DNA from: Octopus vulgaris
Lineage: Eukaryota
Direction of reading: 5' to 3'
Assembly (NCBI GenBank): GCA_951406725.2
Contig: OX597820.1
Span: forward strand, 111,600,001 to 111,664,000
DNA length: 64,000 bases
In this document: in pieces, positions 58,701 through 61,700 of the stretch
Layout of the letters: each line of letters opens with the position of its first letter
Position numbering within the stretch: position 1 is the stretch's first letter
The notes under the pieces: model-generated
Told to the model about the DNA's origin: nothing
Database searches by the model: none
The model's input: the letters and a program-made list of their open reading frames with translations, nothing else
Translations under genes and position numbers: made by a program

Positions 58701-61700
58701 ACTATAAAAAATAGTAGCAGTACATAATTAGTTAGTACAATAGAATAATACAAAAATTAGTTATACGTCACAGTAAAATCTACCTGTAACAAATTTACAG
58801 TAAAATTTGCTTGACCTATTGCCAAGTTTTCACATTTTTAGTCTTGAGCCAATGCCTATTTTTTTACATAATGAATTTGTCTACCATATATAGTATTCTA
58901 CTTTATTTTAAACTTTAGCTATATTGGTACTTCTGGCTCTCACTTTTAAGTATCCTAGTGTGTCAATATTTTAACAAAATGATGGTACCTTTTAAAATTA
59001 TAATGTTACTTTGTAAATTAAAATCAAATAATTTTTAGAAAATTACTATTTGTAAATCTCACGAGATATTCAGCAACAGTACTTTGGAGTAAAGATTGTT
59101 TGCCAGCATAACATGGCAGTCCTGGTTTAGGATGAATGTTGTTGTAATTCAGCCTCAGAAGACATCATCTCCAGCTGGCTATACAACATGATCTGTGTCC
59201 TCATATTTTCGAACAAGGAAATCTAGCACCACCACTCAGCTCAAAATGGTATCTGTGTATCGCGATTTCCGGGTTTATTCCCTTCATCAGCACAGAATAA
59301 TTGTTTGGCTAGAGGTGGCGCTGCCAAATTCCCACTCAAAATATATAGTTTCCAAAGTGACAACTAGTTACTGATTTATAAATTAGAAAATTACTATTTG
59401 TAAATCTCATGAGAGATATTCAGTAACAGTACAGCTGAGTGGGGGTGCTAGATTCCCTTGTTCGAAAATATAAGGAGACAGACTGTGTCGTATAGCCAGC
59501 TGGAGACGATGTCTCTTGGAGCTAAATTACAGCAACATTCGTCCTAGACCAGGACTGCCATGTTATGTTGGCAAACAATCTTTACTCCAAATAATTTTTA
59601 ATATTCAAATTTTATCCTTAGCTGCAATATTTTAAGTAAAAAATTTTTTGTTCTCTATTTCACCAGATGTAATAACTTGTCTTCAACTTTTCCAAGTGTA
59701 ATAACTTATCCTGTACTTTTCCAGATTGATAATCTTAAGAATATTATTTCTCTTGCTTGCATTTTTCCAGGCTCTGGGTGTTATTGTCGACAGTGATTTG
59801 CATTGGACAAAACACATCGCTAAAATTGTCAAGAAGGCTGAGGGTGTCTTGGCATCACTCAACAAATCCTTTGTGAGCCGCTCTCCGGCTATCTATCTGC
59901 GGCTTTATATAGCTATGGTAAGACCTAACCTGGAATTTGCATCACCGGTCTGGAACCCCTATCTTGCCCAGGATATCAATCGTCTAGAAGCTGTTCAGCG
60001 ACGTGCAACCAAAAGAATACCCTCCATCAGGCATTTGCCATATCCTGAACGCCTTACTTCCCTGGGCATGGACACATTGAAACTCCGACGTCTGGCAGCT
60101 GACTTGGCAGACACCCATAAAATTATCAACCATCGTACAAACAATAACTCTGAGCACCTCTTCAAACTCCACCCATCTAACACCCGTGGACATATTTACA
60201 AAGTAAGAAAACAGCACAGCTCCCATGACTTCAGGAAACATTTTTTCATGCTGAGAGTTGCTGAAGCATGGAACAAACTGCCGGCATCAGTTGTTAGTTG
60301 TCGGAGCACTGCATCCTTCAAAACTTCCATTCTTCCTGAGATTCGCCAACACTACACTTGATTTTCTCCCCTCCATACACACACAAGCATGTATCTGATT
60401 CATACACTGTTCACTTTCCAGACATTTATACATTACTGCATATACTTTATACGCACTTTCTGACAAGTTGTGGTGCACCTGAGCACTGTATACAATAACT
60501 TCATTATTATTATTATTAATAATGTGTCAAATGTGTCAATTAGTGGTGTCACTGATAATTTTTTTATTTACCTCAATGATGCCAGTGACATATATTAAAA
60601 GTCCCCTTATAGAACTATATTTATAAAAAAAGTATAGAACTATATTATCACCCTCAAATTTGAGAAACAAACTCATAACATTTTCTTTTAAAACTTCATT
60701 GCATGAGATTGATACCATGAAATTCCTTGAATTGAGCTCTAACATTTAAGCTTAATTAAAATATAGCTTGTTTTTAAAATAAAAATGTTAATTATACTTA
60801 GATCCAATTTTTTGCCGTATATTATTTTCATGTTAAATTACTTCACAACTATTTGGATACAAATTTTTGTTGCATGGGGCCAAAACTATAAAATTCTTCA
60901 CACTTTCTTCTATCATTAAAGCTAAGATAAATATATTTTGCTTTTAAAATAAAAATGTTATTTAGATCTAAACTTGATCGGTGACATTACTTACTCTCCT
61001 ATAACATCGCTACCAATTTTTTCTACTGGATCATATCTCAATTTTATTATACTAAAATGTAGCCAGGGACCAGTCCTCTTCAAAAATATTAACAGTTTTC
61101 CATTTGGTTAAGAACTGAATTAGTAACAAGCTCTGAAAGATGCTGCATGTGAGTAAATTGCAGCCTTAAGAATATTATTCAACTACTACCGTAGTTGATT
61201 GATACACATGCACACTTACAATACGCTTCTTTCAGTTTCCATCTACCAAATACATTCACAAAACTTTGGTCAGCCCAGTGCTCCACAGTGGGACTGAACC
61301 CAAGACCACATGGTTGGGAAGCAAGCTGTGTCTGTCCAAAATAAGTAGCAAAATAAAGTAACTATAACTGACTAATGAAAGGGAGTTGTGTATTAGGCCC
61401 ATGGAGAGTTTACTTTTACATTATGAAGCTTGCAATTGGTTAATTAAAACAATCTTTTCATGTTTCCACTATGTTTATAGGCTCACAACCCCAAAATTTA
61501 AGTATCGGTAATATACTGGGACTCAAATCGATTATATCTATTCCCATCAACATTATGCTTCAATACTACTACTCTAAGAAAATTATCATTACTAAAACTT
61601 TCAAGTCAATATAAAGACTGAGTTTTATGATTTATTTGCAAATAAGAAGCATCAGTTGTCTCAACTAATGAAGTCAGTACAGTACAGTAGCTAAATTATA

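Follow-up and report, generated by a model that had tools for sequence, protein, structure and literature searches.

The window (the whole 64-kb stretch of Octopus vulgaris DNA analysed here) contains three copies of a repeat with a predicted hammerhead. The copy at 59025-59600 is flanked by a perfect 13-bp duplication, CAAATAATTTTTA (59025-59037 = 59588-59600), and consists of two arms that face in opposite directions. The longer, tail-bearing arm (59036-59432) measures 397 nt, with its RNA sense on the minus strand and its 3' end at about 59036, which we refer to as end site 1. The inverted arm (59433-59591) measures 159 nt and is 89% identical to the long arm (141/159). The third copy, at 36-39 kb, is interrupted by a 1.77-kb insert that is absent from the preliminary description of this DNA, and that we call element X. 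The features are as follows:

59025-59037, no strand: target-site duplication, left copy, 13 bp, identical to 59588-59600
59588-59600, no strand: target-site duplication, right copy, 13 bp, the initial 4 nt of which fit the element too
59036-59432, minus strand: tail-bearing arm made up of one retrozyme monomer (351 nt) and 47 nt of the following unit
59433-59591, plus strand: inverted arm, monomer positions 48-206, stopping at end site 2, no tail
59252-59296, minus strand: predicted type I hammerhead with 6-bp stem I, CUGAUGA and GAAA core, and short palindromic stem III
59309-59317, minus strand: LINE target site, empty, monomer position 281/282, and putative transcription start
59340-59348, minus strand: candidate TATA-like run about 30 nt ahead of the LINE target site, from the sequence
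59369-59375, minus strand: U2-upstream-like motif at -59, a candidate proximal sequence element, with one mismatch in this copy
59556-59573, plus strand: 5-bp hairpin immediately ahead of end site 2, a candidate RT-binding signal
29190-30070, no strand: second locus, 1.6 monomers, inverted arm stopping near position 40-50
35827-39043, no strand: third locus, 1.85 monomers, with a long inverted arm that stops at position 47
36683-38456, plus strand: element X, a 1.77-kb decayed, ORF1-only (zinc-knuckle) LINE-type insert with a AATAAAGAAT tail
36669-36682, plus strand: left copy of a duplication of about 14 bp around X (right copy 38457-38470; 3 mismatches)

The anatomy of the locus, first described from the letters, is confirmed as real. 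Inverted arms had been claimed for every locus and are found at all three, which have their ends in common. The flanking duplications, given as 11-13 bp and perfect only at 59025, measure 13 bp, 12 bp with 2 mismatches at the second locus (29190-29201 and 30059-30070), and 11 bp with 1 mismatch at the third (35827-35837 and 39033-39043). The excess of one arm had been put at about 45-50 nt, and the inverted arm at 59433-59591 has its end at monomer position 48; the long arm, one monomer plus 47 nt, bears out that some arms exceed one monomer. A second copy of the 5-bp hairpin lies at 59101-59118. No ORF with RT and GIY-YIG domains is found within the window loci.

Other repeats are also present in the window. 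A 94-bp tandem array of about ten copies, with a 680-bp gap, occupies 51690-53360, and a dispersed repeat family ending in (GAT)n is found in both orientations at 24350-25720, 34200-35190, 46930-47300, and 56130-56920. By eye, a decayed LINE-like coding fragment (59760-60200) adjoins the locus at 59025-59600.

The repeat unit, of about 350-362 nt, occurs in tandem, is non-coding, and lacks a PLE ORF. On its minus strand lies a hammerhead core whose stem I has 6 bp and whose stem III is short and palindromic; metazoan type I motifs of this form are described as working as dimers (PMC4209133). The core and the stem I pairing are present in 67 family-1 motifs, and the sequence of stem I differs yet still pairs in families 1, 2, and 3. 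An Rfam search for hammerheads at gathering and E-value thresholds returns no match, so the prediction, with a predicted cut at 59258/59257, rests on the core and the stems; single-strand folding of the motif is not significant (z -1.65). Families 1-4 align over their length, and all four have a small hairpin directly ahead of their no-tail end. Family 4 is homologous to family 1, with 362-nt units and 1,306 candidates that are young (95-100% identical), and its hammerhead core is a variant with two extra bases (L222:1915-2215 region; L307-L336). From its sequence, then, the unit is a non-LTR retrozyme with a predicted hammerhead.

Metazoan non-LTR retrozymes are described as non-coding tandem units of 150-450 nt with a type I hammerhead and thousands of copies (Cervera and de la Pena 2020, PMC7229834), and the octopus repeat is alike in unit size, tandem non-coding form, hammerhead type, and copy number. 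Penelope-like elements (PLEs) have been proposed as the mobilising partner of metazoan retrozymes, including mussel units of 350-390 bp (PMC7229834). The link is argued from hammerheads in common, co-occurrence, and pLTR homology (PMC7229834; bioRxiv 10.64898/2026.07.22.740005), and, for vertebrates, from the last two of these (Li, Clavereau and Pollet 2026, bioRxiv 10.64898/2026.07.22.740005). Unlike in these published cases, no pLTR homologue was found here. In the available text of PMC7229834 and 10.64898/2026.07.22.740005 we saw nothing on a pair of fixed end sites, on arms in inverted orientation, or on mixed ends as a rule, and the word "inverted" has 0 occurrences in that of PMC7229834. 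We found no cephalopod report in the literature.

Three raw RNA runs from one study show about equal mate directions and no start or end pile-ups on family 1, and the same runs give 3-9 reads on family 4. RNA reads span the unit junction, a signal that genomic tandems would also give.

Genome-wide, the 351-nt monomer has 3,172 candidates. Family-1 loci were pooled from three queries, with 11 duplicates removed, and 62 of them have an inverted arm. A flanking duplication score of at least 9 is reached by 34 of these 62, compared with 14 of 3,782 shuffled flank pairs, and most of the duplications are 9-14 bp long. One end falls at monomer position -21 to 9 in 59/62, a figure biased by the fact that two of the three fetching queries favour copies containing the tail end; the mid-monomer query is for this reason the fair test. 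It yields 27 new loci, of which 21 have an inverted arm and 6 a single arm. Mixed ends, one close to position 1 and one at 41-58, are seen in 19/21 inverted loci; the remaining 2 start near 50 with the other end shorter and have no tail end, and tail/tail pairs number 0/21. The single-armed copies divide into 3 with the tail end and 3 with the no-tail end. The two end sites are separated by 45-63 nt.

The claim of fixed outer ends thus holds in that two end sites recur genome-wide, but the short-arm end is a cluster and not a single base (45-55 in 38/62 inverted loci; range 37-236). Family 4 shows the same arrangement: its ends lie at 234-238 or 296-300, with one of each in 12/12 inverted loci, a count limited to inverted loci with both ends visible, and by simple calculation this would have a probability of 2^-12 if the choice were independent and 50:50. 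The duplications of this family are unreadable because its insertions sit in (TA)n runs. Among five inverted family-2 composites, three are clearly mixed, one combines a tail end with a second end that is shortened, and one (L094) is an exception, with both ends at the no-tail site. Inverted copies therefore nearly always carry one of each end. Inner junctions, which had been called variable, are spread across the whole monomer and do not clearly accumulate at either the predicted cut or the putative start; their peaks are affected by the choice of query and by trimming in BLAST. The tail end shows modest microhomology (T in 21/36 at each of two positions), and the retrozyme ends lie in unrelated AT-rich or (TA)n sites.

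Alignment of many ends, which the preliminary description had proposed as a check, thus recovers the same two end sites repeatedly (59/62; 19/21; 12/12), and reveals neither symmetric terminal inverted repeats with a duplication of fixed length nor random end points. Long inverted arms with flanking duplications could also be the work of a DNA transposon of the fold-back or MITE type that has terminal inverted repeats. We regard this as extremely improbable, given that the ends are regularly asymmetric, arms differ widely in length and in their inner junctions, the duplication length is variable, and 6/27 copies have no inverted arm.

The insertion anatomy itself is a known PLE pattern. Insertions of PLEs are described as partial tandems with an adjacent inverted, 5'-truncated copy in AT-rich targets (PMC3846280; PMC8557442), with a one-sided tail of 30-40 bp and target-site duplications of 8-10 bp (PMC3846280; PMC8557442), and PLE ends are described as carrying cargo in trans (PMC8557442; PMC3846280). 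The purified lizard PLE nicks and extends both strands in vitro, and its RT has two internal RNA start sites, which bound the tail (PMC11167929); the two fixed retrozyme ends match these two starts. Compared with EN+ PLE insertions as described (PMC3846280; PMC8557442; PMC11167929), the octopus loci share the partial tandems, inverted copy, one-sided tail, AT-rich targets, and two RT starts, and they differ in the lack of an ORF, a tail of 45-63 nt vs. 30-40, and duplications mostly of 9-14 bp vs. 8-10; the near-strict rule of one of each end is counted here. The proposal that these copies were retrotransposed by a PLE enzyme is supported by this match in tandems, inverted 5'-truncated arm, one-sided tail, and 9-14-bp duplications. 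By analogy with these elements, the insertions have Penelope-type ends, and were probably inserted in trans by a Penelope-like element.

The genome contains PLEs with intact RT+GIY-YIG ORFs. One copy with both domains, L192, has an inverted arm and a one-sided tail of about 30 nt, like the retrozymes. It is a young, 5'-truncated element (L192:1290-4490) whose inverted arm is perfect over 766 bp; it carries a hammerhead variant of its own and sits in (TA)n. A second young family (L188-L191) has a 781-aa RT+GIY-YIG ORF preceded by one of 330-480 aa, and a repetitive 3' UTR, in tandem units of about 4.8 kb; no canonical hammerhead was seen in it. The PLE search returned 6,136 candidates, of which 150 were scored and 50 GIY-YIG loci inspected; none of these 50 is an autonomous PLE sharing ends, hairpin, or hammerhead with the retrozymes, so the autonomous element foreseen in the preliminary description did not appear among them. 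Neither young PLE family (the 781-aa and L192 types) has an end sequence in common with the retrozymes.

That autonomous PLE copies show the same anatomy, and that 150 of 6,136 candidates were scored, leaves some room for reading the loci as ordinary 5'-truncated 3' ends (pLTRs) of an autonomous PLE, with no separate non-autonomous family. Several observations make this improbable. Arms that pass position 351 enter position 1 of the next monomer or the inverted arm, not an ORF, and this continuation into the monomer argues that the unit is a non-LTR retrozyme and not a truncated autonomous copy. Family-4 arrays consist of many near-identical units with no PLE ORF. Six PLE-locus proteins compared with 157 retrozyme or X loci find a GIY-YIG piece near 1 of them, and none in the window. 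Element X was also considered as a PLE body and rejected, on its zinc knuckle, the lack of an RT, its own duplication, and promoter sequence upstream.

Non-coding, predicted-hammerhead retrozymes of about 350 nt, with two fixed ends and target duplications, likely inserted in trans by a PLE RT/GIY-YIG enzyme, are thus our main reading, to which we assign a probability of about 80%. The tandem unit would be transcribed from an internal snRNA-type promoter, with reading into the following unit. Staggered nicks would yield the target duplication, and the PLE RT/GIY-YIG enzyme would extend the two nicked strands of the DNA, using a different end site for each; the two cDNAs would begin at different internal RNA sites and then join head to head. 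Single-armed copies may reflect the use of only one of the two sites. The mixed-end rule would be expected from two primers on one RNA, or from an asymmetric dimer. The preliminary description had favoured a circular or multimeric template; identical family-4 tandem units fit a circular and a linear multimeric template equally well. Arm divergence is much the same within a locus (8.7%) as between loci (9.2%), and derived bases are held in common at 66/362 within a locus vs. 1,809/14,992 between loci.

A second group of elements is closely associated with these repeats. Element X sits at the target site in the inverted arm of the third locus; its zinc knuckle is seen in relatives, and it has no RT. 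It has 165 candidates, and all 40 scored matches were fetched, giving 37 regions plus the window. Of 48 X 3' junctions, 39 meet the retrozyme target motif or its 5' part within 0-3 nt, compared with a background of 117/3,000, the motifs having been derived from the same flanks after inspection and matched loosely. These 39 fall in family 1 (7), family 2 (19), and family 3 (13), and the remaining 9 comprise 3 with a hammerhead core just downstream, 2 inversion junctions, and 4 others. The junctions are possibly not all independent, because composites may have been amplified together; independence is indicated by the three target families, by X-TSD-X stacks (L093, L097, L120), and by L117, a 5'-truncated X copy that has both promoter and duplication.

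Full-length APE-RT-zinc elements were found via the endonuclease ORF in one stacked neighbour, and 20 regions with APE-RT elements were fetched. These LINEs are abundant, young, and physically linked to the retrozymes as intact copies, and in families 1, 3, and 4 they use the site of X or a nearby one. L240 (3' end) and L239 (5' end) are at the family-1 site, L231 lies in family 3, with an intact 1,146-aa ORF2 and a 20-bp duplication, and the L222 group (9 regions fetched) lies in family 4; L232, L233, L236, and L238 have other targets. The group makes 12-20-bp duplications, stacks in tandem at the retrozyme site, and ends in a AATAAAGA tail at specific targets. Four retrozyme families thus receive insertions of an L1/Tx1-type LINE group at one homologous site.

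Proteins of L231, L224, and L238 have an ORF1 with a CCHC knuckle and an ORF2 with APE, RT, and a C-terminal zinc motif, with no RNase H. Nine LINE RTs from the genome form one clade with 100/100 support, in a tree among unnamed relatives, and the best solved structural relative of the LINE RT is human L1 ORF2p. We infer that the group is of Tx1 type, as judged from structure and behaviour and not from a tree with named references. The RT of L231 is 94-96% identical to those of four elements with other targets, 84-85% identical to those of the U2 and family-4 elements, and 75% identical to that of L240. The ORF1 of X is 25-34% identical to the autonomous ORF1s, too low to point to a direct partner.

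Twin priming is a mechanism by which LINE machinery can make inverted copies. With intact APE-RT LINEs abundant, young, and linked to retrozymes, L1/Tx1-type machinery might have produced the inverted retrozyme copies in this way. We consider this very unlikely. LINE copies have a AATAAAGA tail at specific targets, whereas retrozymes end without a tail of this kind in unrelated AT-rich or (TA)n sites. Moreover, both retrozyme arms cover the same sequence and both begin near the 3' end, which the arms of L1 inversions are not known to do.

Several observations concern other members of the LINE group and other targets. At L213:400-5810, a single family-1 retrozyme contains several different ORF1-only zinc-knuckle elements in a stack, along with an inversion and a tail end. 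The 3' flank of L126 has a fifth hammerhead-bearing repeat after an X-type tail. A young LINE subfamily with a 1,148-aa ORF (L236, L277-L306) forms 5.28-kb tandem arrays of up to about ten copies, and its main target is a multicopy unit that opens with a hairpin and a T5 run and has no Rfam name. In L232 the LINE stands 25 nt after a TATAAAA box within a tandem unit of about 450 bp. Rfam searches on the other LINE targets returned no names.

The LINE site in the retrozymes resembles, in its surroundings, the start of U2 genes. In L241 a LINE stands at +1 of a U2 gene (U2 by Rfam), and Tx1-type LINEs are found in tandem at U2 +1 in L241:7245-7438, L247, and L254 (C3 and C23 U2 arrays), where they duplicate the first ~14 nt of U2; this is not the Keno site. 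The motif ATCAG[TC][GC] starts at -57 to -61 in 17/20 U2 loci, and two of the three loci without a positioned motif have a LINE upstream. The same motif lies at -59 from the LINE site in 37/54 family-1 units (-56 to -60 in 40/54), compared with a background of 0.0007 per 10-nt band, the motif having been selected after viewing the data and matched loosely. It recurs at similar spacing in two copies each of families 2 and 3, with a variant in family 4, and in 0/15 U6 loci. These positions suggest that the LINE site of the retrozyme is a transcription start. A LINE landing there would then borrow the retrozyme promoter.

Tx1-clade APE-RT LINEs are described as entering other repeats or U2 genes and stacking in tandem with a TSD between copies (PMC4494074), and Tx1L, Tx1-Mar with SINEU-3, and Keno are target-specific members (Kojima 2015, PMC4494074; PMC4640811). 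Borrowing of target transcription has been suggested for Tx1 (PMC4494074). Here, in comparison, the targets are hammerhead retrozymes at one homologous site, and the junctions of L241, L247, and L254 lie at U2 +1, whereas what Keno and Utopia leave of U2 runs from nucleotide 39 downstream (PMC4640811). Some satellite targets are unnamed in Fig. 3 of Kojima 2015 (PMC4494074), and our search of the literature outside subscription journals and Repbase found no report of Tx1 targeting of hammerhead repeats or of U2 +1. Newt satellite 2, likewise a tandem repeat with a hammerhead, is reported to have an snRNA-type promoter inside its unit (Coats et al. 1994, as cited in PMC2220036); the candidate promoter here is a motif match to the U2 upstream region of this genome.

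What sets the target remains a matter of two readings. On balance, we lean toward plain endonuclease sequence preference that drifts between subfamilies, with promoter proximity as a by-product: the subfamilies are 7-27% apart in their endonuclease domains, the four retrozyme sites are homologous to one another in sequence, and the 1,148-aa subfamily is found in one other repeat at 22/30 junctions, in a second sequence at 5, and at 3 stray sites that have TCT(A/T) in common, its main target having no ATCAG motif. Against this, RT domains that are 94-96% identical act on unrelated targets, U2 +1 and the retrozyme site are little alike yet equally distant from the same upstream motif, and another target lies 25 nt after a TATAAAA box. 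We also entertain, more tentatively, that Tx1-type LINEs may find their sites by position relative to promoter-bound factors and not by sequence, so that near-identical enzymes would hit both U2 +1 and retrozyme starts. In the retrozymes, such LINEs would take both a promoter and Penelope signals, and one element could use two unrelated retrotransposition machines.

Composites of the two elements suggest that the LINE also rides along in Penelope-type insertions. In L099, L102, and L312 the Penelope-type inversion junction falls within the LINE, L094 has X in both arms, and the upstream promoter, which direct insertion would leave in place, is missing from many 5'-truncated X copies. Full-length LINEs also lie inside inverted, mixed-end family-4 units (L223, L224, L228, L229), where they could be later insertions. 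Read-through RNA from the LINE would still end in retrozyme signals, and because it would keep these signals, a PLE enzyme could move LINE-retrozyme composites.

What is new here is the counted mixed-end rule in retrozymes without an ORF, the U2-like upstream motif, and one LINE lineage that covers both retrozyme and U2 starts. At the level of junctions, the insertion anatomy supports the connection that has been proposed between retrozymes of animals and PLEs. The rule of one of each end constrains the mechanism of PLE integration, in that each strand appears to be primed from an RNA site of its own. The LINE group, which has young, intact copies, contributes a new target class (hammerhead retrozymes, and U2 at +1), and its near-identical RTs with different targets form a natural series for how Tx1 specificity is set.
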